Positions 2,250 to 54,545 of a stretch of DNA of 64,000 nucleotides are shown here, piece by piece (the stretch's first letter is position 1; every line of letters begins with the position of its first letter). A model generated the notes under the pieces. It did not search any database and had not been told where the DNA came from. It saw nothing but the letters and a program-made list of their open reading frames with translations. The stretch lies in IMG/VR virus record IMGVR_UViG_3300020048_000080, one strand, 5' to 3'. The position numbers and the translations under genes are program-made. This DNA comes from a virus. Its lineage: Duplodnaviria; Heunggongvirae; Uroviricota; Caudoviricetes.

Positions 2250-3407
2250 ATGATAGTAAACGTAAAAAGTCAAACCGGAATCTCCGGTTTTTATATTGTA
2301 TTTGATGGTTCAACAATGAATGAGAAACCAGGATGGTATGGACTCTCACACTTAATGGAACATCTAATGTGTAAATCATTTGAACATCTTCAAAATACAT
2401 ATCAACAAAAAAATATTAAATGGAACGCATATACTTCAAATACAGAGGTTGTGTTTTTTATGAAAGGTCTTGATCGTCATATAAATCAATATAAAAAAGA
2501 TTTTTTAGATTTGATACTCAGTTATGAGCCCACTCAAGAACAATTAGATAATGAAAAAAAGATAGTTTTAGAAGAATATAAAATGGCGTTTAATTCACAA
2601 ATGTCCTCACATTATTATAATCTTCAAAGAAAAATGTTCAATTATTATAATGCGATTGGACTTAGATCAGATATTGAAAAATTTACATTACAAGATTGTA
2701 AAGAATATCTTGATTTATACTGTAAACAACCAACTAAAATTATTAACATTTCAATACACAATGATTTTGAAAGTGATATTAAATTTAGAGAAAAAAAGAG
2801 TGCTAAACCACTTGAAATCAAAAACTATACTAACTTACATCATATAAAATCTGATGATGAAACTGTTGTACCAGAAGGTATGATTCCATTAGAAATTATA
2901 AATGATTATAAAAATAAAGTAAGTATAATAAATTCTTCAAAAATATTAACCGATGATTTTGCATCTGCTTCATTTCTATGTGAAATGTTAGGTGCAGGTT
3001 TAAATTCACCTTTATATAAAGAAGTTCGTGAAAAATTGGGATTGGTATATAGTATAGGTTGTTATAATGATAAATTAAATGATACATCATCTATGATAGG
3101 AATAACAACAGATACATCTAAAAAAAATATTGAAACAGTACAAAATCAAATAAAATATGTTTTAGAAAATAAAGAAAAATTTTTAACACAAGAACGGTTT
3201 GATATTGTTAAAGATAACTATATAACAAAATTAGAAGAAGCAGAAATTTTAAATTACGCTAATACCAGTAAATATATTGATGGTCCAGAATGGCGAATTG
3301 AAAGTATCATACACACAATTACGTTGAAAGATGTACATGATATGGTTGATAAATATTTAAAATGGGATGATCTCTATCTATCTGTTGATAAAACAGAATT
3401 TAAATAA
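2250..3407 (+). CDS. M16 (insulinase/pitrilysin-like) zinc peptidase family protein
   Basis: Inverted zinc-binding motif HxxEH in 'GLSHLMEHLMCK'; 385 aa matches a single-unit M16 protein. Confidence 0.5.
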   Translation: MIVNVKSQTGISGFYIVFDGSTMNEKPGWYGLSHLMEHLMCKSFEHLQNTYQQKNIKWNAYTSNTEVVFFMKGLDRHINQYKKDFLDLILSYEPTQEQLDNEKKIVLEEYKMAFNSQMSSHYYNLQRKMFNYYNAIGLRSDIEKFTLQDCKEYLDLYCKQPTKIINISIHNDFESDIKFREKKSAKPLEIKNYTNLHHIKSDDETVVPEGMIPLEIINDYKNKVSIINSSKILTDDFASASFLCEMLGAGLNSPLYKEVREKLGLVYSIGCYNDKLNDTSSMIGITTDTSKKNIETVQNQIKYVLENKEKFLTQERFDIVKDNYITKLEEAEILNYANTSKYIDGPEWRIESIIHTITLKDVHDMVDKYLKWDDLYLSVDKTEFK

Positions 3408-3487: not shown

Positions 3488-4162
3488 ATGAATATAGATT
3501 TAATTGAAAGTGAAAAAATTACTGTAGTTTATGATAAAACTGCTAGTCATAATGTTGACCCACAAAAAGGATTTACACCTCTTTGTCCTGATGAACTTCC
3601 AGTACCAGATGGTGATAATATCGTAACCGAACTTGTTGGTCAAAATGAACTCGTTGCATATAGAACTGTTTCCAAGGATATGCACCCCGCAAATGCTATT
3701 TGGTTAGCAACAAAAGAAAAACCTCAATACACACCTGTTGAAGGCGAGAATGTAGATATTCGTTGGAATGCACATTGTATGAGTGGTACAAAAGGTGCTG
3801 AGCTTCTTGATGGACTTGGTAAAATGAGCGATTTTGATTTCTTTTTAGCAAAAGGTTATGAACCAGAACTTCACCCATATTCATCTTGTTATCATGATCT
3901 TAAAAAGACCATTTCTACAGGTCTTATTGAATGGTACAATTCAAAAAATATTTCAACAATTATTGTTGGTGGATTAGCAACCAATTATTGTGTTGGTGAA
4001 ACTGTTATTGATTTGATAAATGCTGGATTTCAAGTTATTCTTAATCTTGGTGCTTGTCGTGGTATTGGTTCAACAGAAGATGTTGATAAATATGTAAACG
4101 AACTTGTTGAAAAATATGGAGTTTTAGTTGTTAATTCTTATAAAGAAATTGAAGTAATATGA
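3488..4162 (+). CDS. pncA: nicotinamidase/pyrazinamidase (isochorismatase-like cysteine hydrolase)
   Basis: Catalytic Asp in 'NVDPQKGF' and the Cys nucleophile in 'GGLATNYCVGETV', within an isochorismatase-family layout of 224 aa. Confidence 0.7.
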   Translation: MNIDLIESEKITVVYDKTASHNVDPQKGFTPLCPDELPVPDGDNIVTELVGQNELVAYRTVSKDMHPANAIWLATKEKPQYTPVEGENVDIRWNAHCMSGTKGAELLDGLGKMSDFDFFLAKGYEPELHPYSSCYHDLKKTISTGLIEWYNSKNISTIIVGGLATNYCVGETVIDLINAGFQVILNLGACRGIGSTEDVDKYVNELVEKYGVLVVNSYKEIEVI

Positions 4163-4359
4163 GCAAGAAACAAAAAACTGTAAGAGTTGAAGAATTAATT
4201 GAATTCTTACAAACGTGTGATCCTAAAGCCAAAGTTTTTATAACTATGGGAGGAAGTTGTAATTGTAATCCAGTAACATTCTATGAAGTAGATGATTGTG
4301 GTATTGAAGTTGGTGAAAAACATGCTGGTTCAGTAATAATTGGAGAAATGACTTGGTAA
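4159..4359 (+). CDS. hypothetical small Cys-containing protein
   Basis: ATGA overlap with pncA; contains 'GGSCNCNP'. Confidence 0.3.
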   Translation: MSKKQKTVRVEELIEFLQTCDPKAKVFITMGGSCNCNPVTFYEVDDCGIEVGEKHAGSVIIGEMTW

Positions 4360-4384
4360 TTAAATTTTTTAATTCAATAATTTA

Positions 4385-5623
4385 TTGTACATTTGTACTC
4401 TAATCAAAAATAATATGAAACAAGAAGGAATCATTAGAAGTATTTTGGATAGCGATCTTTATAAGTTTTCTATGCAATATTTTGTTATTCAGCATTATAA
4501 TGAAGCTGAAGTAGATTATACTTTTAATAACCGAGACAAATCAATGGTTTTTAACCAAACTGCTGTTGATGAAATTAAAAATCAAATTAAACTTATGTCC
4601 GAACTCAAACTCACAGATGCTGAGTATGATTGGATGAAAAAAGAATTATATTTTTTACCTGTTGCATATCGTCAATATCTTGCCGCATATAGATTTAATC
4701 CAAATCAAGTTAATATTAATCTTACTTTTAATGGTCAATTAGAAATAAACATTAAAGGTAAATGGAGGGACACCATTCTTTGGGAAGTGCCTCTTATGGC
4801 TATCATATCAGAAGTATATTTTAAATATATGGATACTGACTGGAATATGGATAATCAAGAAAAATTAGCCTATAATAAAGCTAAAACTCTTAGTGAAGCT
4901 GATTGTTTCTTTGCAGATTTTGGTACCCGCAGACGTAGAAATTTTGAAACTCAGGATATTGTAGTAAAAACTATGAAGGAGTTTAAAGGATTTGTTGGAA
5001 CTAGCAATCCTTATTTAGCAATGAAATATAATGTAAAAGCACTTGGAACTTGTGCTCACGAGGCAATAGGCGCTGTCGCAGCATTAGAAAGTTTAAATCA
5101 TCCGAATAAAATATTTATGGAAAGATGGTCTGAAGTGTATGAAGGTGATTTGGGAACTATGCTACCTGATACTTATGGACTTGAATCTTTTTTGAAAGAT
5201 TTTTCATTAGGAAAAGCAAAATTATGGGATGGAGTAAGACATGACTCAGGTGATCCTTATGTTTTTGTTGATAAAATTGTTGAGCATTATAAAAAACTAC
5301 GAATTGATCCAACCACAAAAACAATTATATTTAGTGATGGATTAGATGTTGAAACTGCAATTTCACTTAGGAATTATTGTAGAGGTAAAATTCGTTGTTC
5401 ATTTGGTATAGGTACATTTTTTACTTCTGATTTCATTAAGGCTAGTACTAAAAATAGTGAAATGTGGCGACCACCTCAAGTTGAGAAAAGTAAACCAATG
5501 AATATGGTAATTAAACTTACTATGATTAATAACATACCAGTTGTTAAATTATCAGATAGTCCTGGAAAAGCAATTGGTGATCCAAAAATGGTTGAAATAA
5601 TGAAATATATTCACTTATCATAA
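4385..5623 (+). CDS. pncB: nicotinate phosphoribosyltransferase
   Basis: N-terminus 'ILDSDLYKFSMQ' matches PncB 'LLDTDAYKLHMQ'; 'FADFGTRRRRN' phosphoribosyltransferase motif; length of 412 aa fits PncB and is too short for NadV/NAMPT. Confidence 0.75.
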   Translation: MYICTLIKNNMKQEGIIRSILDSDLYKFSMQYFVIQHYNEAEVDYTFNNRDKSMVFNQTAVDEIKNQIKLMSELKLTDAEYDWMKKELYFLPVAYRQYLAAYRFNPNQVNINLTFNGQLEINIKGKWRDTILWEVPLMAIISEVYFKYMDTDWNMDNQEKLAYNKAKTLSEADCFFADFGTRRRRNFETQDIVVKTMKEFKGFVGTSNPYLAMKYNVKALGTCAHEAIGAVAALESLNHPNKIFMERWSEVYEGDLGTMLPDTYGLESFLKDFSLGKAKLWDGVRHDSGDPYVFVDKIVEHYKKLRIDPTTKTIIFSDGLDVETAISLRNYCRGKIRCSFGIGTFFTSDFIKASTKNSEMWRPPQVEKSKPMNMVIKLTMINNIPVVKLSDSPGKAIGDPKMVEIMKYIHLS

Positions 5624-5837: not shown

Positions 5838-6137
5838 ATGAGTGATGTAAAAGAAGATACCAAAACCTTAGAAGAAATCTTAGCAGAGTCTGGAATTTCA
5901 ACTAGTGCAGAAGAAGAGAGCAGACTCGTTTTATGGAATGATGATCATAATTCATTTGAATGGGTTATATTTTGTCTTGTTACTTTACTAGGATTTACAA
6001 TGGAAAAAGCAGAAAATGCTGCTTGGACTGTACATTTACAAGGTAAAGAAGTAGTAATGAATGGATCAAAAGAATCATTAGAACCATACAAAAAATTATT
6101 AGAAGAAAGGGGACTTACTGTCTCTATAGAGGATTAA
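5838..6137 (+). CDS. clpS: ATP-dependent Clp protease adaptor ClpS
   Basis: 'LVLWNDDHNSFEWVIFCL' matches the ClpS core 'ILVNDDYTPMEFVI'; the 99-aa size fits; located directly upstream of the Clp ATPase gene. Confidence 0.8.
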   Translation: MSDVKEDTKTLEEILAESGISTSAEEESRLVLWNDDHNSFEWVIFCLVTLLGFTMEKAENAAWTVHLQGKEVVMNGSKESLEPYKKLLEERGLTVSIED

Positions 6138-6139
6138 AA

Positions 6140-6373
6140 ATGAAAAAATTAATTGCAAAATATATTTTATATGTTTACTTAAATTTCATTAAAGATAATG
6201 ATATTGACATTTATAATGAATGGGCAATTCCTATAATAAAAACTAATAATTTTATTCGTAATATTTACGTTTGGATAGCATCAATATTATTTTTTCCAAT
6301 TTTTATCATTGGTATGATTATTGACGAAAATAGAGAACATATTCAAAAAAAAATAAATATATACCTTAACTAA
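6140..6373 (+). CDS. small membrane protein (hypothetical)
   Basis: Hydrophobic segment 'IYVWIASILFFPIFIIGMII'. Confidence 0.3.
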   Translation: MKKLIAKYILYVYLNFIKDNDIDIYNEWAIPIIKTNNFIRNIYVWIASILFFPIFIIGMIIDENREHIQKKINIYLN

Positions 6374-6382
6374 ATATAAAAA

Positions 6383-8926
6383 ATGAAATACTCAAAAGAC
6401 GTAGAAAAAGCAATAAAAGAAAGTAAGGAAATTGCGATAGAAATCAATTCTAAAACAATTAGACCTGAACATTTATTTTTAGCATTGATTAATAATCAAG
6501 AATCAAACGCATATAATATTTTATATGAAATGAATCTTAATATTGATGCTATAAAACAAACATTAAAGGATTGGTCAGTAGCAATACAATCACAAATTGG
6601 TATAGTTAAATTAAGAAGTAATGCCGCTATATCATTGGATCCTGAAACTGATAGAATTCTTAAGAGTGCAATGGAATTTGCAAAAAATGTTGAATCAGAA
6701 GAAGTTGATTCTGAACATGTTTTTTATTCTATTTTAGAAAACTCTAATAATTTAGTAACCGAATTATTTAGTAAATCTCCTGATACTTTTAAAAATTTAA
6801 AAGTAAGATTGAAAAATGATGAGGAACAAGAAGAAATTTATAATGATAACGATAATGATTTTGATATGGAACAAGACGCAACCGAAAAAGGAAATAAAAA
6901 TTCAAAAACTAAATTAATAGAACAATTTGGTGTTGAACTTACTAAACTTGCAAGAGAAGGAAAATTAGATCCAGTAGTTGGTCGCAAAACAGAAATTAAA
7001 AGAATTTCTCAAATTCTTTCTCGTAGAAAGAAAAATAATCCAGTTCTTATTGGTGAACCAGGAGTTGGTAAATCTGCAATTGCTGAAGGTATGGCACAAC
7101 TCATTGTAGAAGGTAAAGTACCAGGCAACCTAAAGGATAAAAAGATTTTCACTCTTGAAATGGGATCACTTGTTGCTGGTACTAAATACAGAGGTGAATT
7201 TGAACAAAGATTAAGAGGTATTATCAAAGAAATGGAAGAAAATAAAAATATTATTCTTTTCATTGATGAAATACATACTATAATTGGAGCAGGTTCAGCA
7301 CAAGGATCACTTGACGCTTCAAATATGTTAAAACCAGCACTTTCCCGTGGAAACTTCCAATGTATTGGTGCTACTACACTTGAAGAATATCGTAAGTATA
7401 TTGAGAAAGACGGAGCATTAGAACGTCGTTTTCAAAAGGTTAATGTTGACCCAACATCAAAATCAGAAACACTTGAAATTCTTAAAAATATTAAAGATAA
7501 ATATGAAGAGTATCACTCAGTAACTTATACTGAAGAAGCTCTACAGGCTTGTGTTGATTTGACTGATAAATATATGTCAGAAAAATTTCTTCCAGATAAA
7601 GCTATTGATGCTTTAGATGAAGCTGGTTCAAAGGTTCACGTAAACAGAACAGTTAATGTTCCCAAAAAAATTCAAGAACTTGAAAAGAAAATCAAGAAAG
7701 TTTTTATTGAAAAAGCAAAACTTATTGATGATCAAAAATTTGAAGAAGCCGCAGAAAAAAGAGACTCTGAAAGAGAACTTATTAAAGAATTGGATGTAGA
7801 AAAAGAACTATGGAAAAGTGAACAATTGAAAGTTCGTGATTCTGTTACAAAAGATGATGTTGCTGAAGTTGTTGCATTAATGACAAAAATTCCAGTTGAT
7901 AATGTATCTTCTGATGAAAACAACAAACTCAAACTTATGTCAAATAAGGTAAAGAGTGTTGTTATCGGACAAGATGAAGCAGTTGATAAATTAGTTCGTG
8001 CCGTTAAAAGAGCAAGAATTGGTATCAAGGATCCAACAAAACCAGTAGGTTCATTTATATTCTTGGGACCAACAGGTGTAGGTAAAACATATCTTGCAAA
8101 GATTATGGCAAAGGAACTTTTCGGTTCTGAGGAATCTATGATTCGTATTGATATGAGTGAGTATATGGAAAAACATACTGTATCAAGGTTAGTAGGAGCG
8201 CCTCCGGGATACGTTGGATATGAAGATGGTGGTGAACTTACCGAAGCTGTAAGACGTAGACCATATTCAATTATTCTTCTTGATGAAATTGAAAAAGCAC
8301 ACCCTGATGTTCAAAACATTCTTCTTCAATTACTTGATGATGGTGTATTAACTGATAGTTATGGTCGTAGGGTTGACTTCAAAAATACGATTATTATTAT
8401 GACTTCTAATGCAGGTTCAAGAAAAGTTAAAGATTTTGGTACAGGTATTGGTTTTTCATCATCAGCAAGAAGTGAATCAGTTCAGAAAGATAAAAATGAT
8501 GTGATTGATAAAGAATTGAAAAAAATATTCAGTCCAGAATTTTTAAACCGTATTGATGAAGTTATTATGTTTAACTCATTAGGAAAAGACCAAATTGGTA
8601 AAATTGTTGATGTTGAAGTTAAATCAACTATTCAAAGATTGAAAGATATTGGATATGAAATCAACATTACTCAATCCTTAAAAGATTATCTTTTTGAACA
8701 AGGATATGATGAAAATTTTGGAGCCCGACCACTAAAAAGAGCAATTCAGAAATATATTGAAGATTATATTACTGATGCTATTATCAACGAAGAAGTTAAA
8801 GTTGGTGATAGACTTTCATTAAGATTTGATAAGACTTTGAAAGAAGTTAAATTAATTAAATTATCATTGAAAGATGAAATTGAACCTCAAGGTTTGTTAC
8901 CTATAACAACTGAACCAATTGTCTAA
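6383..8926 (+). CDS. clpA: Clp ATPase ClpA/ClpC type (Clp_N repeats plus two AAA+ modules)
   Basis: N-terminal Clp_N repeats; Walker A motifs 'GEPGVGKSA' and 'GPTGVGKT'; Walker B 'ILFIDEIH' and '[10 protein letters not shown]'; a UVR-like linker '[12 protein letters not shown]' is closer to ClpC. Confidence 0.85.
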
Positions 8927-8958
8927 TAAAAAAGCCTCTGAAAAGAGGCTTTTTTTAT
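8927..8958. terminator. bidirectional intrinsic terminator (agcctct-gaaa-agaggct)
   Basis: Hairpin flanked by an A-run and a T-run, between the convergent clpA (+) gene and the dNMP kinase-like (-) gene. Confidence 0.6.
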
Positions 8959-9470
8959 TTTATATTTTCAATGAATTTTATTGATTCTTGTTCTAAATCT
9001 TTTTTATTTCCGTTGTTTTTAATTATAAAGTTATAATTATAATTGTCAACATTTTTATCAGAATCATTATCAGGAACAATTCTATCTTCCCTTTTTAGTA
9101 ATAAGGTTACACAATCATCACCATACTTATCGGCAAATTTTTGTATTTCATATGGTTCTCTACAATGAATAAAGTAAACAATATTCTTACTATCTATTTC
9201 TGATAAGGTTAAAAGATGTTTGGAAATTTTCTTAATAATATCTTCAAAAGGACCATTATTAAATTCTATCCAAACTCTTTTTATCTCTGATAAGAATTTT
9301 CTTGCCTCATTTGTTTTTTTACCATTCCATCCAAAATTCCTTTTTGCTATCTTTTTAACTTTATCAATTGCGGACCAATTCATGCATTTATATTCATAAT
9401 TCTTTTTAAAATATTTTACAAAATTATCTTTACCATTCTGTGCCGAACCATTTATGATTATTACTTTCAT
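8955..9470 (-). CDS. deoxynucleoside monophosphate kinase-like P-loop kinase (T4 gp1-like)
   Basis: N-terminus 'MKVIIINGSAQNGKDNF' resembles T4 gp1 'MKLIFLSGVKRSGKDT', a GxxxxGKD Walker A motif. Confidence 0.45.
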   Translation of the reverse strand: MKVIIINGSAQNGKDNFVKYFKKNYEYKCMNWSAIDKVKKIAKRNFGWNGKKTNEARKFLSEIKRVWIEFNNGPFEDIIKKISKHLLTLSEIDSKNIVYFIHCREPYEIQKFADKYGDDCVTLLLKREDRIVPDNDSDKNVDNYNYNFIIKNNGNKKDLEQESIKFIENIK

Positions 9471-10198: not shown

Positions 10199-12001
10199 AT
10201 GGCTAAAGTGTCAAAATTTATGAAGTTAAATACAAATATCTTAATGGAATGGGTATTTGATAGTGAACATTATGTTAGTGAAAATTATAGAGTTGTAACA
10301 AATTTGAATGAAAATAAAAAAAGAAGTTTTCTTTCAACATCTAATATAAATAATATAGATAATAATCTATTTCAATTAGATCCAGTTTTAAAGAAATATA
10401 CTCAAGTAAATACAGCTAAATATAATTTTTTACAATTACAGGATTATAGTTCATCACCAGTTCCATATGATAGAGTAAGAATATATTTACCAACTACTTA
10501 TAATTTTGTTTTCAATGGATATGTTGGATTATATTTAAAGATATTTGCATATGGATATGAAAATAAAAATGTTTATGAATTATCTAATATATTCTTTGAT
10601 GCTACAGTAAGTTCTAGTTCAGGTCAAACACAATTAGCAATACCTTTTATTTATGATGAACAAGAATGGGGAAAATATTATGAATTTGAAGTTCCATCTG
10701 TTGATTTTTTATCAAATCAAAGGGTCACCTCCGGAAATACAAATTCAGTAATTCCAAATTCTATTAATGCAAATTTAACTTTAAATGAAGGTATTAGTCA
10801 GACAGGTCCTATATTTGTTGATGTTCAATATTTAAACACAAAAGAAACGGTATTAGGTAATACATACTACTATGCTTCTGAATCTTATAGATCTTCTTTT
10901 GCAAAATCACCAGAATATAATACTTTAGCAGTACAAATTCAAGAATCAACAGAGGGAGATTTTTTTGAAATTTATGGTACATACGGTGAAACTAATGAGA
11001 GTTTGGATAATTTTGTTAATGATATTGAAAATAAAGGTCGTAAAATTAGAATTGAATATGATATTTATTTATATGAAGAAAATATGCAAACCAATATGCA
11101 AACAGTTGTTTTGACAGGTGGTGTTAATGATGATTTTACTAAAAAAATATTATATAGACCAATATTAATTATTTCAAACACAACAGCTGCAATTAAAGTT
11201 ACTATGAGAGTTGTAGATTTAGTTGATATGAGTACTATTTATAGATACACATCAATTGGATTAGATAATAATATTCAAAAATATGGTAAAAAACTAATGA
11301 GTTTAAATGTTCAAAATTTAAATAAACTTAAAATTTACAATGCAAAACCAGATGAGATTATCTTAGGTAAAGATTATTTTTCAGGAAATTTAATGACAGA
11401 AATTATAAAAGTAAATTCACCACAATTAATTGAGGTAGGAAAAATAGTTGTAAATAGTCCGAAATCTTCTGATACATATAAAGGAATGGGATTATTAAAT
11501 TTAATTATAACACCATTTGATAATATAATTCAATTTAGGTTAGCAACATTAACAGAATCAAGTCAACTACAATTATATGATTTAGCAAACATATTAAATA
11601 ATTCTGAAATAGTTTTAACATTTAAATCGGATTCAGAATTAGTAGAGAAATCTATTTATAATGAAGCAGATAATGATTATAAAAACGGAATAATAAATTT
11701 TAAAATTGTAGAAAACGATCTGAATGTGTTGAAGAAAATCTATTATAAAGGTTTTAATAATTTCTATTTAACAATTCTTTCAAATAAAATAAAAACATTA
11801 TTGTATTCGGGAACATTTTCATTCTTTGAAGATATTAAATTTATTGATAATACACCGAATATAATTGAAAGTAATAATACAATACAACCTCCAGGATCAG
11901 ATACTACAACAACACAAGAAGAAACCACGCCAGAGTGGCCGAAAGCTGGTAAAACTGTAATTATTTATACTAAATATAAAGATACAACACCTCAATCATA
12001 A
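10199..12001 (+). CDS. large hypothetical protein (600 aa), possibly virion-associated
   Basis: Long ORF with an N/T/S-rich composition and a Thr-rich C-terminus; it is immediately followed by Ig-like repeat proteins. The structural role is inference only. Confidence 0.35.
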   Translation: MAKVSKFMKLNTNILMEWVFDSEHYVSENYRVVTNLNENKKRSFLSTSNINNIDNNLFQLDPVLKKYTQVNTAKYNFLQLQDYSSSPVPYDRVRIYLPTTYNFVFNGYVGLYLKIFAYGYENKNVYELSNIFFDATVSSSSGQTQLAIPFIYDEQEWGKYYEFEVPSVDFLSNQRVTSGNTNSVIPNSINANLTLNEGISQTGPIFVDVQYLNTKETVLGNTYYYASESYRSSFAKSPEYNTLAVQIQESTEGDFFEIYGTYGETNESLDNFVNDIENKGRKIRIEYDIYLYEENMQTNMQTVVLTGGVNDDFTKKILYRPILIISNTTAAIKVTMRVVDLVDMSTIYRYTSIGLDNNIQKYGKKLMSLNVQNLNKLKIYNAKPDEIILGKDYFSGNLMTEIIKVNSPQLIEVGKIVVNSPKSSDTYKGMGLLNLIITPFDNIIQFRLATLTESSQLQLYDLANILNNSEIVLTFKSDSELVEKSIYNEADNDYKNGIINFKIVENDLNVLKKIYYKGFNNFYLTILSNKIKTLLYSGTFSFFEDIKFIDNTPNIIESNNTIQPPGSDTTTTQEETTPEWPKAGKTVIIYTKYKDTTPQS

Positions 12002-12015
12002 AAACATAATAATAA

Positions 12016-13164
12016 ATGGCAACAATAGAAAACAATATAGATGAATTACTAGCATTATTAAACACTTCAGAAACCTTATTAAGATTTAACTCTTCAATAG
12101 AAAAAGAGATCAGTCAACATGGTGGTACTGTGTTATATTCATATAACGATATAATTATTGCATCTGAAATTTCTGATAATTTTTTTGTTGAATTATCAAA
12201 AAATCCATTTATAGAAAATATATACGAAGTACCACTCAAGAAGTACGGAGATGTTGATATGAGTCTAATTGATCAAATTGATGTTTCAAAAATTGGAATT
12301 AACTTGAATGTTACATCTGGTGATACAACTATAATAAGTGGAAACGAATCAGGATCAGGCACAATAAGCTATTCAGGTGATGCACCATTAATAACAAATC
12401 AAAGTTTAACTTTAAATGCTGTTACTAATCAATGGTTCAATTACAAAATAACAGCAAGTGGAAAATTACCAATAAAATTTGAAATAATTCCAAATATAAA
12501 TGGACAAGTATCAATAAGTGGTGATACTATAACAGGATTTAGTTCAATTGATGGTAATTTTAATATCACATTAGTCGCAACAAATAATTTTGGTTTTGAT
12601 AATAAAACTTTAGTTGTACATGTAGTAACACAACCAAAAATAACAAGTCCTCTTATCGCATATGGAACAGTAGGTACTGGATTTACTTATACAATAACAG
12701 AAACTGGTGTTTCATATACATATAGAACATATGGATTACCATCTGGATTATCTCTAACAGGAAATATTATATCTGGTGTATTAAGTTGTGTTGCAGGTGT
12801 TTATAAATTTCCAATTGTTGTGGAAAATTCAAATGGTAGTGATAGTAAAACATTAGAATTGAGAGTTAGTGATACAAGCACTTATCTAAAACCTATTATA
12901 ACAAGTGGTGGTATTGCTAATGGTGAAGAATATACGGATTTCTCATATACTATAACATCAACAGGAACCCCGCCTATCTCATATAGTGTAATTGGTACAT
13001 TACATAATGGTTTAACTTTTAACTCAGGTGATACTATATCAGGAGTACCAACTATAGGTGGTATAAAAAATGTTACACTAAAAGCTACTAGTCCATATGG
13101 AACAACAGAAAAAAATCTTAAAATATCAATAGATAATGCTCATCCACCAGCAGAAGGTGGTTAA
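12016..13164 (+). CDS. protein with repeated putative Ig-like (He_PIG/BIG-like) domains
   Basis: Several roughly 90-aa repeats with 'YGLPSGLSLTGNIISG' and 'TYTIT.TG' patterns typical of putative Ig domains; the N-terminal module is paralogous to the next ORF. Confidence 0.5.
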   Translation: MATIENNIDELLALLNTSETLLRFNSSIEKEISQHGGTVLYSYNDIIIASEISDNFFVELSKNPFIENIYEVPLKKYGDVDMSLIDQIDVSKIGINLNVTSGDTTIISGNESGSGTISYSGDAPLITNQSLTLNAVTNQWFNYKITASGKLPIKFEIIPNINGQVSISGDTITGFSSIDGNFNITLVATNNFGFDNKTLVVHVVTQPKITSPLIAYGTVGTGFTYTITETGVSYTYRTYGLPSGLSLTGNIISGVLSCVAGVYKFPIVVENSNGSDSKTLELRVSDTSTYLKPIITSGGIANGEEYTDFSYTITSTGTPPISYSVIGTLHNGLTFNSGDTISGVPTIGGIKNVTLKATSPYGTTEKNLKISIDNAHPPAEGG

Positions 13165-13179
13165 AAATAATATTTATAA

Positions 13180-13530
13180 ATGCCAACAACATCATTACAA
13201 CGATCAATATTTACAAATTTAACATATGTTGATCAATTAAAAGATCAAATCACTAGAAGTGGTGGTACAATAGTATTTACAAAAGATAATATGATAGTGG
13301 CATCTGAAGTCTCAGAAAGTCAGTATAGAGAATTATTAAAAAGTCCATATGTTGAAAAAATTGATGTTTTACCATTAAAGCGATATGCAAATCAAGGTGT
13401 TAAATATAAAGAAAATGTTAAAATTGTTGATAATACTAGAATAAAAAGTGTGGTAATACCAACACCTCAACCAGTAGAACCAACACCAACACCTCCATCA
13501 ACACCACCAGCAGATCCAGCAGGTTCATAA
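13180..13530 (+). CDS. hypothetical protein sharing its N-terminal module with the upstream Ig-like protein; Pro/Thr-rich tail
   Basis: 'GGTIVFTKDNMIVASEVSESQYRELLKSPYVEKIDVLPLKRYA' aligns with 'GGTVLYSYNDIIIASEISDNFFVELSKNPFIENIYEVPLKKYG' of the upstream protein. Confidence 0.4.
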   Translation: MPTTSLQRSIFTNLTYVDQLKDQITRSGGTIVFTKDNMIVASEVSESQYRELLKSPYVEKIDVLPLKRYANQGVKYKENVKIVDNTRIKSVVIPTPQPVEPTPTPPSTPPADPAGS

Positions 13531-14284: not shown

Positions 14285-15451
14285 ATGCTGAAACAATTAA
14301 TTGAAGGAGTAAACATTGGTTTTCTCAACAATACTCCTGGGGAAGATCCAGACCCATTTGTAAAATTATCAAATAATAAAATTCCAAAAGTAAAAGGAAT
14401 AGGAACTTTGTCCGAAGATTATTTGAATTTATATCAAAAAATGGAAAAATCATTTCTCTCTTTAAGAGAAATAAACACAAATGAAGTCATTACAGGTGTC
14501 GTTGTGTCTGTAAATGAAAAAGAAATACTTGTTGATTTTGGATATAAAGATTATATCTATGTTGATAAACCAAAAAAGAGCAATGTATCAACCGAATTAA
14601 AAGTTGGTGACACTATTGATGTTCTAATTACTGAAATTCTTGATAATCCGTTTATGATAAAAGGATCAATTACAGAATTAATTAAACAAAATGTTCACAA
14701 CAAAATGAAACATTATTTTGAAAATAATGTTCAACTTACATCAACTGTAAAATCTATGATTCCAGCTGGTTATATGATGGATATACACATGGATAATATT
14801 ACAATTGAAGCATTTATGCCTAATACATTGGCAGATATCAATAAATTATCTGATTCTAATTCTGTAATGGGATTGACATTTGAAGTAATGTTAGAAACCT
14901 TACAACAAGAAAAAGGAGTTTATGTAGTATCAAGAAGGAAGTATTTACAATCCTTAATTCCAGAAGAAATCAAAAAATTAAAAACTGGTATTGTTTATAA
15001 AGGTGAAGTTACGGGAACAACTCCATTTGGTGTCTTTGTTCAATTTAGTGCAAATCCTGGAGGACCAATCTGCTTAACAGGAATGGTTCATAAAGCTAAC
15101 ATTAATGAATATTTTCACGATAAATGGGACCAAATTGTACCTGGCTTAGAGATTGACTTTTATGTAAAAGAAGTTATTAAGAATAATAAAATTATTCTTA
15201 CTCAAATTCTAAAAGAATCTTTATGGGACACAATAAAAGTTGGTAAAGTTTTAGACGGTAAAATTAGAGATATCAAAAATTTTGGTGCTTTGATTGAATT
15301 AGATGGAGAAACTACAGGATTAATACAAACCACTTATATTAATAAATTAAATGGTAAAAAATTGAATGTAGGAGATGAAATTAAAGTAAAAGTTATATCA
15401 TTGATTCGGGATGATAGAAAAATTTATCTAAATTTTGCAGACAACAAGTAA
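14285..15451 (+). CDS. multi-S1-domain RNA-binding protein (ribosomal protein S1-like)
   Basis: Repeated S1/OB signatures, for example 'ITGVVVSVNEKEILVDFG', 'YKGEVTGTTPFGVFVQF' and 'GKVLDGKIRDIKNFGALIELDGETTGLI'. Confidence 0.6.
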   Translation: MLKQLIEGVNIGFLNNTPGEDPDPFVKLSNNKIPKVKGIGTLSEDYLNLYQKMEKSFLSLREINTNEVITGVVVSVNEKEILVDFGYKDYIYVDKPKKSNVSTELKVGDTIDVLITEILDNPFMIKGSITELIKQNVHNKMKHYFENNVQLTSTVKSMIPAGYMMDIHMDNITIEAFMPNTLADINKLSDSNSVMGLTFEVMLETLQQEKGVYVVSRRKYLQSLIPEEIKKLKTGIVYKGEVTGTTPFGVFVQFSANPGGPICLTGMVHKANINEYFHDKWDQIVPGLEIDFYVKEVIKNNKIILTQILKESLWDTIKVGKVLDGKIRDIKNFGALIELDGETTGLIQTTYINKLNGKKLNVGDEIKVKVISLIRDDRKIYLNFADNK

Positions 15452-30409: not shown

Positions 30410-32228
<1,819 letters not shown>

Positions 32229-32232
<4 letters not shown>

Positions 32233-37761: not shown

Positions 37762-38061
37762 TTATAGATTATATTTTTCTGCATCTTTTTTCATAAAATA
37801 ATTTTCTAAATCTTTGTCTGATACTTTTTTATATCTATATCTAGCATTATCTGTTGAACCTGGTGGATCAGTACTTTCTAATTCGTTTACTATATATCCA
37901 CTATAATGTATATCTGGTGGTCCAATTTTACGTAATACTTGAAATATATCGGGATATTCTTCACGTACAGGTGATATACATTTCAAATAAATATAATCAC
38001 CAACTTCTGGTGTGTAGTTGAAATCATCATCCTTATCTTCATATTTTTTAATATATTTCAT
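37762..38061 (-). CDS. KYNL-family small protein (MKYIKKYEDKD..., VGDYIYL, AEKYNL)
   Basis: Family motifs. Confidence 0.45.
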   Translation of the reverse strand: MKYIKKYEDKDDDFNYTPEVGDYIYLKCISPVREEYPDIFQVLRKIGPPDIHYSGYIVNELESTDPPGSTDNARYRYKKVSDKDLENYFMKKDAEKYNL

Positions 38062-41461: not shown

Positions 41462-41749
41462 ATGAAAAAATTTTTCAATGACTTTATAAACGAAAAAAAG
41501 GAAGTTTATAAATTTAAAAAAGGTGATTATGTAAAATACGACATAAATTACACTAATAATAACTATTCAGATAAAATCTTTATGATCGTCAATAGGCAAA
41601 AACTAAGAAAAAATCAAATAAATAATTCAACATATTGTATTTATACAATTGATGCTATTGACGGAAGTAAATCTGTAAGTTCTGTGTATGGATGGGAATT
41701 ACGAGAATTAACTGATTTTGAACTTGCCACATTAAAATATAATTTATGA
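41462..41749 (+). CDS. KYNL-family small protein (KGDYVKY, C-terminus TLKYNL)
   Basis: Family motifs. Confidence 0.45.
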   Translation: MKKFFNDFINEKKEVYKFKKGDYVKYDINYTNNNYSDKIFMIVNRQKLRKNQINNSTYCIYTIDAIDGSKSVSSVYGWELRELTDFELATLKYNL

Positions 41750-43076: not shown

Positions 43077-43433
43077 TTATAAATTATATTTTTCAGCATT
43101 TATAAGTGTTTCTAATTCTCCCTTATTATCTGACCAATATTTGAAATTTTGTGTTGTGTAGTCCGATGTATTGTTTCTTCTAAAATAATTAGTTTTTGAA
43201 AAAGATAAAATTTCTGGTATATTTTCAAATTTAACAATGTATATCTGACCACTAGGAGTTTTTAAACCATTATGTTGGTCTTTTATATCTACTATTTCTC
43301 CTATATTTTCACTAACAAATCTATTATACACATCCAATGCTTGACTATCTCCTCTAGCGTTATATATTATCACATAATCACCAAGATTAGGTTGTGTACT
43401 GACTGTTTCAAATATTTTAAATCTTGTTATCAT
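43077..43433 (-). CDS. KYNL-family protein (MITRFKIFETV, LGDYVII, KYWSDNKGEL, C-terminus AEKYNL)
   Basis: The track ORF extends to 43484, but the family alignment favours a start at Met 43433. Confidence 0.45.
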   Translation of the reverse strand: MITRFKIFETVSTQPNLGDYVIIYNARGDSQALDVYNRFVSENIGEIVDIKDQHNGLKTPSGQIYIVKFENIPEILSFSKTNYFRRNNTSDYTTQNFKYWSDNKGELETLINAEKYNL

Positions 43434-43511
43434 CATCTTATATATAAAATTGAAAAATATTTTTTTATATGATAACTTTTTCATACTTTTGTACTACCAA
43501 ATATAAAAACT

Positions 43512-45539
43512 ATGACCTTATCAGAAACTTATATCCTATTACATAACGGTGATTTTATCGCTGTTGCAAACGAAATTAAAAGATTAAATAAAAAATATCG
43601 TGATGGTGATCCCGAAATAACAGATTCCGAATACGACCTTTTACTTAAAACATTTAAATCTGTTGATCCGGAGAATGAAATTTTTACATCAGGTGTTATT
43701 GAAGTTGTTGAGGTTGATTCTGATAGAAAAGAAACTTTAAAATATCCAATGTTTTCTTTAGATAAAGAAAGTTCTATTGAAGAAATCAAGAAATGGTTAA
43801 TCAATAAAGGCTTACCTCTCTCTACTGTTTTAGTATGTACCGCAAAATATGACGGTATCTCAGTTTTAAAAAACGAAAAAACTGCTCTTGTTTGGTCAAG
43901 AGGTGATGGTGTTGAAGGTGAAACAATGCACGAACACTATAAAAAATTAAATGCGAAAAACTCCAATATTGAAATTTATACAATTGGAGAAATGATTATT
44001 CCTAAACCAGTTTTTGCAACACATACATTCTATCGTGATAATGGTGAAGCATTTAGAAATGCTAGAAATATGATTGCTGGTCTTAAAAATTCAGATACAG
44101 TTTCAGATGATTTGAAATATGCAAAACACGTTCGTTATGGATTTGCTAGTGAGGATTTTACAATGAATAAATCTGAACAACTTGATTTTATCTCAAAAGA
44201 ATTGAATCCTGTTCCTTATAAAATATTCCATGCTGATGATTTGAAAGTTGATGAGTTAAATGAACTTTTTATTGAATGGGGTAAAGAATATGACATTGAC
44301 GGTCTTGTGTTAGATATTAATGATAAAGATATAAGAAAAAATTTAGGTCGTGAAAGAAATAATAATCCTTGTTACGCAAGAGCATACAAAAATCCCGAAT
44401 GGTCAGTAATAAATACACCTGCATACAAAGATATAGAATGGAATCTAAGTAAAACTAAGGCTTTAAAACCTGTTGTTCTTGTAGAACCATTTGATGTTGA
44501 TGGTGTTACGATATCAAGGGTAACAGGATATAATGCTAAATTTATCCAAGAAAATCAAATTGGTGAAGGCTCTATTTTAGAAGTTATTCGTTCTGGTGGA
44601 GTTATTCCAAAAATTACTGGAGTTATAAAAGTTGGTAAACTTGCTCTTCCAACCCATTGTCCTAGTTGTAATACAAAATTAGAATGGAATGAAAACGCAG
44701 TAGATTTGGTTTGTAATAACAAAGGTTGTGATGAAATTAATTTTCAAAAAGTTGCATTCTTTTTTGTTCGTTTTAATATTGTAGGATTTGCAGAAAAAAC
44801 TATTAAAAAAGTATATGATGCTGGTTATAATACAGTTGGTAAAATTTTATCAATGAGTTTTATTGATATTCAAAAAATTGAAGGTATGGGAAATCTCTCA
44901 GCAACAAAACTTTTGAAAGAATTTGATGAAAAAATTAAACAAGCACCTTTTGAGGTTATTGGACACGCATCAGGTTGCTTTGAAAATATTGGTTCAAGAA
45001 AACTGAAGATGATTAATGATGGAATTAAAGATATGGTTTATGCACCAGGTAAATCTTATCCTCATTTTGATACATTTAAAGATTCCATTGTAAAAATGGA
45101 CTTGGAATTAATTTCAACAATGTTATATTTTAATGATGTTTATAAAGAAATTTTATCAGTATTGAATTCTATAAAAGGTATGTCAGATAAAACTTCTGAA
45201 AACTTTTTAAATGGTCTTATCTGTTTTAATTCTTTTATGAAGGATTTGAACATTACAATTAGTGATGAACCGAAAGTGAAAAAAGAAACTCCAAAAAATA
45301 ATACTAACAATATGAAAACTACTGATTTAAAAGGTCGTGAATTTGTGTTCACAGGCTTCCGTGATGCTGAACTTAAAAGTTTCATTGAAAGTTGTGGTGG
45401 CGTTGTTAAAGATGATATTAGAAAAAGTACAACAGATTTACTTACAAAAAGTCCTGATACTACCTCAGCAAAAGCAAAAAAAGCACAAGCAATAGGTGCA
45501 ACTGTAACACAGGTTGATGATTTTAAACTTTCATTATGA
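43512..45539 (+). CDS. ligA: NAD+-dependent DNA ligase
   Basis: Adenylation motif 'CTAKYDGISV' (KxDG); Zn finger 'CPSCNTKLEWNENAVDLVCNNKGC'; HhH region; C-terminal BRCT 'GREFVFTGF'. Length 675 aa. Confidence 0.85.
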   Translation: MTLSETYILLHNGDFIAVANEIKRLNKKYRDGDPEITDSEYDLLLKTFKSVDPENEIFTSGVIEVVEVDSDRKETLKYPMFSLDKESSIEEIKKWLINKGLPLSTVLVCTAKYDGISVLKNEKTALVWSRGDGVEGETMHEHYKKLNAKNSNIEIYTIGEMIIPKPVFATHTFYRDNGEAFRNARNMIAGLKNSDTVSDDLKYAKHVRYGFASEDFTMNKSEQLDFISKELNPVPYKIFHADDLKVDELNELFIEWGKEYDIDGLVLDINDKDIRKNLGRERNNNPCYARAYKNPEWSVINTPAYKDIEWNLSKTKALKPVVLVEPFDVDGVTISRVTGYNAKFIQENQIGEGSILEVIRSGGVIPKITGVIKVGKLALPTHCPSCNTKLEWNENAVDLVCNNKGCDEINFQKVAFFFVRFNIVGFAEKTIKKVYDAGYNTVGKILSMSFIDIQKIEGMGNLSATKLLKEFDEKIKQAPFEVIGHASGCFENIGSRKLKMINDGIKDMVYAPGKSYPHFDTFKDSIVKMDLELISTMLYFNDVYKEILSVLNSIKGMSDKTSENFLNGLICFNSFMKDLNITISDEPKVKKETPKNNTNNMKTTDLKGREFVFTGFRDAELKSFIESCGGVVKDDIRKSTTDLLTKSPDTTSAKAKKAQAIGATVTQVDDFKLSL

Positions 45540-48262: not shown

Positions 48263-48946
48263 ATGGAAACACTAGTGATTGAAATTAGAGCATCCGAGGG
48301 TGGCAACGACTCCAAATTGTTAGTAAATGATTTAACTAACATTTACACAAAATCTTGCCGAAATAATAACTTCTCCTACAAAGTAGAAGAACGTGATGGT
48401 GTTGCAAATATTTGAATATCAGGTAAAAAAATCTTCTCCTATTTTAGCAATGAAAGCGGATCGCACTGTTTTGTGAGGGTTCCTCCCACAGAAAAAAATA
48501 ATAGGGTACAAACAAGTTTCGTAACAGTAGCAATTATGAACACAGAAAAAGAATCTGAGTTCAAATTGGATAGAAATACGGTATTGAAAAGTTATATCAG
48601 ATCCAGTAAAAAAGCGGGTGGTCAAAATTTAAACAAGGTATCCTCATGTGTTCAATTGACACATATTCCAACAGGAATTCAAGTTAAGATTCAAGATACA
48701 AGAGACCAATGTAAAAATGAGGTTATTGCTTGGAAAACATTAACAGAAAAATTAAAATCTATTGAAGATAAGAAAAATTACGAGATAACTAAAAATTATC
48801 GTAATGATCAGATAGGAAATGGAAGTAGAGGTGGAACAAAAAGACGAACTTATAGAATATTAGAAGATTTGGTAATAGATCATATTACAGGTAAAACTTG
48901 TAGATGGAAAGATATACTAAAAGGTAAAATTGATTTACTTTGCTAA
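48263..48946 (+). CDS. PrfH-like class-I release factor homolog (RF1-type, domains 2 to 4 only) interrupted by one in-frame TGA at 48413..48415
   Basis: 50 codons 'METLVIEIRASEGGNDSKLLVNDL...GVANI', then TGA, then in the same frame 'ISGKKIFSYFSNESGSHCFVRVPPTEKNNRVQTSFVTVAIM...SSKKAGGQNLNKVSSCVQLTHIPTGIQVKIQDTRDQCKN...'. It is collinear with RF1 'LEVRAGTGGDEA...IIAKISGDGVYG...[25 protein letters not shown]...[38 protein letters not shown]'. The GGQ motif and a PxT-type tripeptide (PPT) are present. The N-terminal domain 1 is absent, as in PrfH. Confidence 0.6.
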
Positions 48947-53382: not shown

Positions 53383-54066
53383 ATGAATCAAAACTCGGAA
53401 TTTCAAAAATTTGCAACAGGACACATGCGTATCAATTCAATGGTACTTCACGATTATCAAAGTAAAGCAAACATTATGGGAAATTATATTTCCCCGACAA
53501 TTATAGAAGAACGGCAACTCAATGTTGCGCAGATGGATGTATTTAGTCGCTTGATGATGGATAGAATTATCTTCTTAGGTACGGCAATTAATGATCACGT
53601 TTCAAATATTATACAGGCTCAACTTCTTTTCTTAGAGTCTATTGATAAATCAAAAGATATTCAAATCTATTTAAATTCACCAGGTGGTGGTGTTTACGCT
53701 GGTATGGGTATTTACGATACTATGCAATACGTTCAACCTGATATTGCAACAATTTGTACAGGTATGGCGGCATCTATGGGCGCAGTTCTACTTTGTGCAG
53801 GTGAAAAAGGAAAACGAACCGCTCTTAAACATTCAAGAGTAATGATACATCAACCTTCCGGTGGTGCTGATGGACAAGCATCTGACATTCTTATCGTTGC
53901 AAAAGAAATTCAACTTTTGAAAAATGAATTATACCAAATCATGTCAGACCATACTGGACAGACTTTTGAACAAATAGAAAAAGATAGTGATCGTGACCAT
54001 TGGATGACTTCAACTGAAGCAAAAGCATATGGTATGATAGATGAAGTTTTAATTAGAAATAAATAA
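53383..54066 (+). CDS. clpP: ATP-dependent Clp protease proteolytic subunit ClpP
   Basis: 'RIIFLGTAINDHVSNIIQAQLLFL', Ser nucleophile in 'GMAASMGAVLL', His in 'MIHQPSGG', 'SDRDHWMTSTEAKAYGMIDEV'. This is a canonical ClpP rather than a diverged prohead protease. Confidence 0.9.
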   Translation: MNQNSEFQKFATGHMRINSMVLHDYQSKANIMGNYISPTIIEERQLNVAQMDVFSRLMMDRIIFLGTAINDHVSNIIQAQLLFLESIDKSKDIQIYLNSPGGGVYAGMGIYDTMQYVQPDIATICTGMAASMGAVLLCAGEKGKRTALKHSRVMIHQPSGGADGQASDILIVAKEIQLLKNELYQIMSDHTGQTFEQIEKDSDRDHWMTSTEAKAYGMIDEVLIRNK

Positions 54067-54545
54067 TGAACTCAAAATTAGATAGTTACTTAGTTACAAA
54101 ATATCCTAAACTTTTTATTAAAAGATATGAGGATATGAAATCCACAGCAATGTGTTGGGGATTTGAATGTGGTGATGGTTGGTTTTGGTTACTTGATAAC
54201 CTTTGTCAATCTATACAATCCTATATAGATTATAATACACATAAAAATATAACTCAAGTTACAGTTGAACAGGTAAAAGAAAAATTTGGCGGTTTACGAT
54301 TTTATATAGAAGGTGGTGATGATACCATTCACGGTATGATTTCATTAGCTGAACGTATGTCATATAATATTTGTGAAACATGTGGTTCTACGGAAAATAT
54401 AGGACAAACAAGTGGATGGATAAAAAATATCTGTGAGGACTGTGCTAAACTAGACACAAAATCAAATTGGAAAAAAAGGGAAATTCCACAAATAGAAATA
54501 TCTAAAGAATTAAGAAAAATAAAACTTGATAAATTAAATCAATAA
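54066..54545 (+). CDS. hypothetical protein with a Zn-ribbon (CETCGSTEN...CEDC)
   Basis: ATGA overlap with clpP; CxxC...CxxC. Confidence 0.3.
   Translation: MNSKLDSYLVTKYPKLFIKRYEDMKSTAMCWGFECGDGWFWLLDNLCQSIQSYIDYNTHKNITQVTVEQVKEKFGGLRFYIEGGDDTIHGMISLAERMSYNICETCGSTENIGQTSGWIKNICEDCAKLDTKSNWKKREIPQIEISKELRKIKLDKLNQ

Follow-up and report, generated by a model that had tools for sequence, protein, structure and literature searches.

A clpS–clpC operon and a host-like clpP gene carried by a huge-phage contig

The closest described counterparts of the genes considered here are the ClpS–ClpC–ClpP systems of bacteria and plastids (mycobacterial ClpS/ClpC1/ClpP1P2; cyanobacterial and chloroplast ClpS1/ClpC/ClpPR), the ClpCP protease of Bacillus subtilis and the ClpS–ClpAP system of Escherichia coli. 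ClpS reads the N-termini of substrates, and chloroplast ClpS1 and mycobacterial ClpS work with ClpC-type partners; the middle domain of the unfoldase is short and carries a UVR-like motif in ClpC, is absent from ClpA and is long in ClpB. Among viruses, jumbo phages have already been listed with ClpP, ClpS, ClpA and ClpX (Iyer et al, 2021; PMC7824862), Bacillus phage G encodes ClpXP, with both proteins detected by virion proteomics (PMC12484599), and ClpA is a core gene of the “moraphages” (PMC12619734); the main text of the huge-phage paper PMC7162821 does not mention Clp. These reported genes are, like the ones described below, host-derived and carried by very large phages, where they are read as host-targeting or assembly tools. 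However, they are single components or a ClpX–ClpP pair, whereas the 64,000-nucleotide stretch analyzed here (the window), taken from the IMG/VR virus record IMGVR_UViG_3300020048_000080, encodes ClpS, a ClpC with an N-domain and a canonical ClpP. In the literature searched, we found mentions at the level of components only and no description of a phage ClpS/ClpC/ClpP trio.

The nearest phage counterparts are the huge-phage genomes LR756502 (642 kb) and LR745206 (634 kb), which belong to the same broad phage group as the window and have a lineage-specific gene, orf600, in common with it. Both hold all three genes (ClpP at 70% and 53%, ClpS at 30–42% and a ClpC-like ATPase at 59–60% identity), but hundreds of kb apart, whereas in the window lineage clpS and clpC form an operon and ClpC has its N-domain. 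A first-pass annotation of the window had called a phage-encoded set of this kind unusual; with Clp components known from jumbo phages in the three reports cited above and all three present, dispersed, in these two genomes, that description is overstated.

The reading we favor, and consider probable, is that a huge phage infecting Bacteroidota carries here a self-contained ClpC–ClpP protease and, with it, the N-recognin ClpS, and that all three stem from genes of Bacteroidota hosts. It builds on gene identity, intact motifs, operon structure, conservation and Bacteroidota ancestry. As the first-pass annotation had it, clpS, the AAA+ unfoldase gene and clpP are all intact open reading frames (ORFs). 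On the + strand, clpS (5838–6137; 99 amino acids, aa) encodes the adaptor, in which an N-terminal extension of ~27 residues precedes the ClpS core, and clpC (6383–8926, +) encodes an 847-aa class-I Hsp100 unfoldase. The two genes had been described as an adjacent clpS and clpA/C; they do share a unit, but a conserved 77-aa ORF (orf77; 6140–6373, +) stands between them, and the unfoldase is of the ClpC type, not ClpA. Two nucleotides past the clpC stop begins a strong intrinsic terminator (8928–8965, +), made up of a 12-bp stem (four G–C pairs), a loop of 4 nt and a T-rich tail. Because this terminator follows clpC and no + strand terminator was found between clpS and clpC, clpS–orf77–clpC looks like one transcription unit, possibly running on from the nicotinate phosphoribosyltransferase (NAPRTase) gene upstream. 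No promoter was assigned: the Bacteroidota consensus (TTTG...TAnnTTTG) is not enriched in the window (nine found, eight expected), and a sigma-70 scan stayed at background level. The third gene, clpP (53383–54066, +; 227 aa), starts 44.5 kb beyond the clpC stop, at the distance originally claimed.

This arrangement recurs in related phages. The order NAPRTase–clpS–small ORF–clpC is kept in the IMG/VR contigs L005/L006 (501 kb), L032 and L011, in which NAPRTase adjoins clpS on its upstream side, plus L206/L207, and clpS–ORF–clpC is kept in at least five independent relatives at 61–70% protein identity, on contigs that reach 711 kb. Homologs of orf77 occupy the same slot in all of the contigs named, with 40–55% identity and 12 invariant residues. 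The small, hydrophobic orf77 product has one predicted membrane-spanning stretch (residues ~44–63) and matches nothing in Pfam or NCBIfam. In the contig IMGVR_UViG_3300022555_002641, clpC (L011) and clpP (L170) lie ~56 kb apart, as they roughly do in the window. The lineage is widespread in metagenomes, where distinct variants of ClpS and ClpC number more than 100, which argues that the trait is under selection.

The unfoldase contains the Pfam domains Clp_N, AAA, AAA_lid_9, AAA_2 and ClpB_D2-small, laid out as an N-domain, an acidic low-complexity linker, D1, a short middle domain and D2. Its best match in the PDB is B. subtilis ClpC (770 bits), which aligns to residues 3–813 in a single stretch, whereas ClpB and ClpA align in two separate pieces only. 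The middle domain carries a UVR-like motif (451–461) that pairs with QEFEKAASLRD of B. subtilis ClpC without any length difference and thereby identifies the protein as a ClpC rather than a ClpA; the ClpA equivalog models are not reached (TIGR02639, 811 vs 993; NF008263, 626 vs 1350). Both Walker A motifs (GEPGVGKS, 224–231; GPTGVGKT, 562–569), both Walker B motifs (ILFIDE, 291–296; IILLDE, 630–635), the pore loops (KYRG, 268–271; GYVG, 609–612) and sensor-2 (GARPLKR, 780–786) are present. The ClpP-docking loop IGF (689–691, in FGTGIGFSS) aligns to the VGF loop of B. subtilis ClpC and is retained as I/V/M-G-F across the sampled ClpC members of the phage clade. Inteins of ~335–360 aa with homing-endonuclease domains interrupt ClpC in P0125, P0138, P0164, P0185 and L032 (10001–13507), located exactly in the Walker A loop of either D2 (GVGK/C...HN/T, after window residue 568) or D1 (after residue 230); the window clpC is intein-free. 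Inteins in Walker A loops are typical of genes whose ATPase must work.

By descent, the window ClpC belongs to a large metagenomic clade (58–86% identity), followed by a gap to the ClpC of Flavobacteriia (52–55%), and in a neighbor-joining tree of the AAA+ core it sits on a long separate branch. The ClpC-like proteins of LR756502 and LR745206 (701–707 aa) have no N-domain, and the N-domain of the window ClpC, used alone as a query, found no match in either genome. In the same tree, their neighbors are ClpCs of Flavobacteriia, and the window clade lies elsewhere. An exact-sequence look-up of ClpC (the window copy and P0121) returned no contig.

ClpP is a canonical Bacteroidota-type Clp peptidase. 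It scores 256 bits against Pfam CLP_protease (cutoff 20), passes both the cellular equivalog model NF011091 (370 vs 361) and the subfamily model NF001368 (291 vs 249), and aligns over residues 35–225 to solved ClpPs at ~230 bits. Its triad, S131 (GMAASMG), H156 (IHQP) and D205 (DRD), corresponds to S97/H122/D171 of E. coli; the E. coli ClpP and ClpS references were entered by hand, with a numbering that agrees with the PDB alignments. The triad is invariant in 80 bacterial homologs; all 45 phage homologs have the Ser and the His, and 44 of them the Asp. The earlier claim of a non-diverged ClpP with an intact Ser-His-Asp triad stands. Nearly all of the best 80 matches, taken with one genome per bacterial species, come from Bacteroidota, at 68–77% full-length identity, and a protein of a 4.8-Mb Bacteroidales chromosome is 77% identical. 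In the hydrophobic pocket that receives the IGF/LGF loops of the unfoldase, each of the 11 positions examined has either the majority residue of 80 Bacteroidota ClpPs or one that is common among them, and 7 of the 11 equal E. coli. The handle helix departs from this pattern at two positions, where the 80 Bacteroidota proteins have E and K with an invariance of at least 95% and the window ClpP has L170 and L178; the closest phage relatives have Q/A and I/T at positions 170/178. Such changes may affect ring–ring contacts or mixing with host ClpP.

In a neighbor-joining tree, the window ClpP clusters with four IMG/VR relatives (74–81% identity), and this small group lies within the bacterial ClpPs. 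Further phage ClpPs, from LR756502 and several IMG/VR groups, fall elsewhere among the bacteria, and those of LR756504, LR745206 and the Lak megaphages, the latter ~60% identical to the window protein, branch more deeply. Since phage sequences are thus interspersed among bacterial ones, the tree suggests that phage lineages captured ClpP from their hosts repeatedly. An exact-sequence look-up of ClpP found the same phage in two samples only; SRR7760390 and ERZ27262927 are examples of samples in which this phage occurs. A Cys-rich ORF (orf159; 54066–54545; 159 aa, CxxC...CxxC) overlaps the clpP stop by one base; we considered it as a ClpP partner and set it aside, as it occurs near clpP (~1.3 kb) in the four closest relatives only (L165–L168), which is insufficient.

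The adaptor is recognizable by family and fold. It scores 55 bits against Pfam ClpS (cutoff 23), and its residues 28–73 align position for position to residues 28–73 of E. coli ClpS (HMMER). Of the pocket residues, N34, D35 and H66 occur in all of 121 phage homologs and D36 in 110 of them, which argues that peptide binding by ClpS is under selection. Where E. coli has T38 and the gatekeeper M40, the phage proteins have N and F, with essentially no variation among the 121 homologs. Structure-database alignments place N38 also in Mycobacterium smegmatis ClpS and F40 in Plasmodium ClpS, and each residue has thus been seen in a crystallized ClpS. In an AlphaFold2 (AF2) model, the core reaches a predicted local distance difference test score (pLDDT) of ~90, and the 38 best PDB fold matches are all ClpS (target template-modeling [TM] scores of 0.87–0.93), the closest being Arabidopsis ClpS1 and M. 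smegmatis ClpS (root-mean-square deviation 0.7–1.0 Å). Residues 1–27 (5838–5920), which precede the core, are predicted with low pLDDT to contain a short helix. Such N-terminal extensions are flexible, needed for substrate hand-off and usually variable in sequence; here, the phage family has kept the sequence of the extension (consensus TKTLEEILAESGI), with L11, I14 and L15 invariant. With the window ClpS as query, ClpS-like genes were found in only 4 of 50,697 phage records.

Set beside the bacterial and plastid ClpS–ClpC–ClpP systems and B. subtilis ClpCP, the phage genes have the same three parts, the ClpC architecture and the ClpS fold with its N34/D35/H66 pocket. They differ in being virus-encoded, in the divergence of ClpS and its conserved extension, in the small hydrophobic ORF between clpS and clpC and in the acidic linker between the N-domain and D1. 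With the E. coli ClpS–ClpAP system they share the adaptor logic, N34/D35/D36/H66 at identical positions and the presence of an N-terminal extension, but the unfoldase is a ClpC with a middle domain and the residues at positions 38 and 40 are changed.

If the products cooperate as they do in these systems, ClpS and ClpC would be supplied from one tight, terminator-ended unit and ClpP from its distant locus. ClpC would form a double-ring, ATP-driven hexamer that docks through its IGF loops on a ClpP tetradecamer, as the intact motifs imply; barrel assembly and peptidase activity of ClpP are likewise predicted. ClpS, judging from its fold and pocket residues, would bind bulky hydrophobic N-terminal residues of substrates, dock on the ClpC N-domain and pass the substrate to the pore by means of its N-terminal extension. 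The phage would then have regulated proteolysis of its own during a long infection, for removing host or phage proteins or for proteostasis, in a supply independent of host Clp levels.

Several observations weigh against this interpretation. That the three products interact is a prediction from their sequences, and clpP, 44.5 kb away and unlinked, encodes a protein whose close resemblance to host ClpP means that host unfoldases may be its partners. In the related published huge phages, ClpC is without an N-domain and ClpS is unlinked, so the three genes are not always a traveling functional unit. ClpS falls below every NCBIfam ClpS equivalog cutoff (best 40 vs 86), which marks it as divergent, and with N38 and the gatekeeper F40 its specificity may differ from that of E. 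coli ClpS. Of the double Clp_N repeat by which ClpC proteins bind adaptors, only one copy passes Pfam here (residues 16–62, 42 bits); the whole N-domain aligns with residues 6–140 of B. subtilis ClpC. The neighbor-joining trees carry no support values, and the bacterial ClpPs in them are a sample biased by similarity. Finally, unlike in the E. coli Leu/N-degron pathway, no Aat/Bpt transferase (Leu_Phe_trans, ATE) or other enzyme that generates N-degrons was found in the ~46 window ORFs scanned against Pfam. Of the “full N-degron pathway” first proposed, the three core parts with intact motifs are thus present, and a Leu/Phe-tRNA protein transferase was not found in these 64 kb of a genome that is probably larger than 500 kb; the host may supply the enzyme that creates secondary degrons.

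A serious alternative, to which we give a modest chance, is that the phage parts are used in combination with those of the host: phage ClpS and ClpC would feed host ClpP, and phage ClpP would boost or mix into the host pool that serves host ClpX and ClpC. This is compatible with the self-contained protease rather than exclusive of it. Delivery of targets by phage ClpS to host ClpAP was proposed by Iyer et al (PMC7824862), and cross-pairing of the phage ClpP with host ClpX, ClpC or ClpP is possible because the protein keeps a host-type docking surface. Its 70–77% identity to Bacteroidota ClpP, the lack of linkage between clpP and clpS–clpC, and the separate gains of ClpP that phage lineages seem to have made, given their interspersion in the tree, all fit such mixing. 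A lineage relying on host partners is less easily reconciled with the retention of an IGF-bearing ClpC and a ClpP together on at least two contigs, and the two changed handle-helix positions in the window ClpP lineage could limit mixing.

E. coli ClpS inhibits the degradation of ssrA-tagged and other substrates by ClpA, and the phage ClpS might similarly act mainly by inhibiting or re-specifying host Clp unfoldases, thereby blocking host quality control or the degradation of phage proteins. In the related huge phages that pair ClpS with an N-domain-less ClpC, ClpS must act on host partners, because their own ClpC is without the N-domain that it needs, and the unusual conservation of the N-terminal extension, with its three invariant residues, would also suit an inhibitor. 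We nevertheless regard this as unlikely for the window lineage, in which clpS always stands beside an N-domain-bearing clpC and the residues of the N-degron pocket are invariant.

An elaboration of the self-contained protease, a private N-degron pathway with rules of its own, is similarly doubtful. Here, the F40/N38 gate would set specificity, the N-terminal helix of ClpS would possibly bind a partner, orf77 would localize or regulate the system, and the handle changes would keep ClpP from mixing with that of the host, all in the service of a timed destruction of host defense proteins or of multi-copy small phage proteins after processing by an M16 peptidase. A zinc peptidase of this insulinase-type family, with an intact HxxEH motif (H34–H38), is encoded at 2250–3407, 2.4 kb upstream of clpS; that it makes new N-termini or scavenges ClpP products is speculation.

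The window does encode a striking and real family of small paralogs. Ten ORFs of 91–179 aa all end in KYNL before the stop, and most start with MKY(L/I)K(T/K)FE...GDY; six lie head to tail at 22811–26071, and the others at 31894–32232 (−), 37762–38061 (−), 41462–41749 and 43077–43484 (−). No other C-terminal tetrapeptide comes near KYNL in frequency (10 of 176 ORFs, the runner-up occurring twice), and the two members tested had no match in Pfam. The conserved termini of this family had been put forward as possible Clp substrates, an idea that we abandoned: the KYNL tail is C-terminal, the N-termini (Met-Lys-Tyr-Leu...) are not primary N-degrons, which Met-Lys N-termini become only when processed, and no evidence connects these ORFs with the Clp genes.

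It is improbable that ClpC instead works as a ClpP-free unfoldase or chaperone in virion assembly or translocation, with an unrelated role for ClpP. Such roles were suggested for jumbo-phage ClpA and ClpX by Iyer et al (PMC7824862), and the genes just downstream of clpC encode a conserved all-beta protein and a minor-tail-like protein. However, ClpB-type chaperones have no docking loop of the kind that the sampled phage clade retains, and ClpS and ClpP co-occur with the unfoldase.

That ClpP is a prohead protease for capsid maturation is very improbable: ClpP-fold proteases do serve capsid maturation in many phages, and the protein matches head-maturation families in PHROGs (phrog_94, 143 bits), but it stays under the corresponding NCBIfam models (NF045542, 92 vs 120; NF045540, 104 vs 475) while passing the cellular cutoff, matches cellular ClpP over its full length, including the N-terminal axial region, and lies among small family-less ORFs and a PhoU_div protein, neither fused to nor beside a capsid or scaffold gene. 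Related huge phages, moreover, have extra ClpP-like loci (2–3 places per record), which may include the prohead protease. A grouping with prohead proteases, against which the first-pass annotation had cautioned, was thus not found, and neither was the bacterial origin of the contig that it had also raised.

The latter idea, that the contig belongs to a small low-GC bacterial genome or is a mis-binned fragment of a metagenome-assembled genome (MAG) with housekeeping Clp genes, has next to no chance of being correct, even though the Clp proteins resemble host ones, one orf600 homolog is filed under a Candidatus Dojkabacteria MAG and GC is ~25% across the whole window, as in reduced bacterial genomes. 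Similarity of the lineage-specific genes is confined to huge-phage genomes of 462–735 kb in or near the “Mahaphage” clade and to IMG/VR contigs. In particular, orf600 (10199–12001), which encodes an all-beta protein with 62–82% identity in relatives and no match in Pfam or PHROGs, is matched by only 6 of the 50,697 phage-collection records, LR756500–LR756504 and LR745206, all of them curated genomes of uncultured huge phages of 462–735 kb. The window ClpS, ClpC and ClpP likewise match LR-series huge-phage genomes, and close relatives of ClpC and orf600 lie on IMG/VR contigs of up to 501 kb and on metagenome contigs of 531 and 711 kb. An Rfam scan of the window returned tRNA-Leu genes only and no ribosomal or other cellular RNA. 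The five tRNA-Leu genes (62366–63572; TAA twice, AAG, TAG and CAA) form two tight clusters on either side of a 237-aa ORF, and a phage-type RNA ligase, an HNH endonuclease and many small family-less ORFs also speak for a phage, as does the distance of ClpC, on its long branch, from its nearest named bacterial relatives. No capsid, portal or terminase gene was identified within the 64 kb. Because the similarity is exclusive to curated huge-phage genomes and the contig is a member of IMG/VR, we assign it with high confidence to a virus, as part of a huge-phage genome related to the 462–735 kb genomes of Al-Shayeb et al (2020). The full genome probably exceeds 500 kb, of which the window covers 64 kb; the source contig is no shorter than 85 kb. 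The largest genomes of PMC7162821 belong, like the Lak phages, to the “Mahaphage” clade, and their predicted hosts are Bacteroidetes.

As to the product of orf600, we considered it as a virion hallmark, but its poor model gave no fold assignment (AF2 pLDDT of 55; meaningless beta-sandwich fold matches only, with TM of at most 0.17). Its homolog P0315 (72% identity) lies on a 16-kb contig and is the protein held at NCBI under the Candidatus Dojkabacteria MAG; the contig most likely comes from a phage and was placed with a bacterial genome during binning. Downstream of orf600, orf382 (12016–13164) resembles a Rhodococcus-phage minor tail protein in its C-terminal half and is paralogous to orf116 (13180–13530) at its N-terminus.

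Lak phages recode TAG. No sign of such recoding was seen in the window, where standard-code ORFs fill 85% of the sequence without gaps; TAG is rarely used as a stop (5 of 98 ORFs). A truncated RF1-type release-factor-like gene (48263–48946) has the PPT and GGQ motifs, is without domain 1 and is broken by a single in-frame TGA at 48413. Upstream of clpS, an isochorismatase/nicotinamidase-like gene and the NAPRTase gene form a NAD-salvage pair (3488–5623). Further host-like genes encode a ribosomal-protein-S1-like S1-domain protein (14285–15451), a hybrid PAS-histidine kinase/receiver (18826–20316), a CCA-adding enzyme (23448–24638), an adenylosuccinate synthetase (30701–31897), a NAD-dependent DNA ligase (43512–45539) and a 613-aa SPFH/Band 7 protein (58154–59995), the last in a local GC peak (36%). 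Together with a thymidine kinase, an SbcC-like fragment and the many ORFs without any family, such genes are typical of the huge-phage repertoire.

The novelty of the locus is limited, each part being already known from large phages. What is new is a widespread lineage with a fixed operon that joins an N-domain ClpC to ClpS and a small membrane-type protein, and with a canonical, host-like ClpP in addition. Its practical value is modest, as a testable example of a host-like machine in huge phages without a new mechanism, and the divergent phage ClpS proteins offer natural variants of the N-degron pocket for studies of specificity. If the three proteins cooperate, the virus would possess a complete line of adaptor, unfoldase and peptidase, free of host protease levels, and chosen host or phage proteins could be removed by a reading of their N-termini in the course of a presumably long infection.

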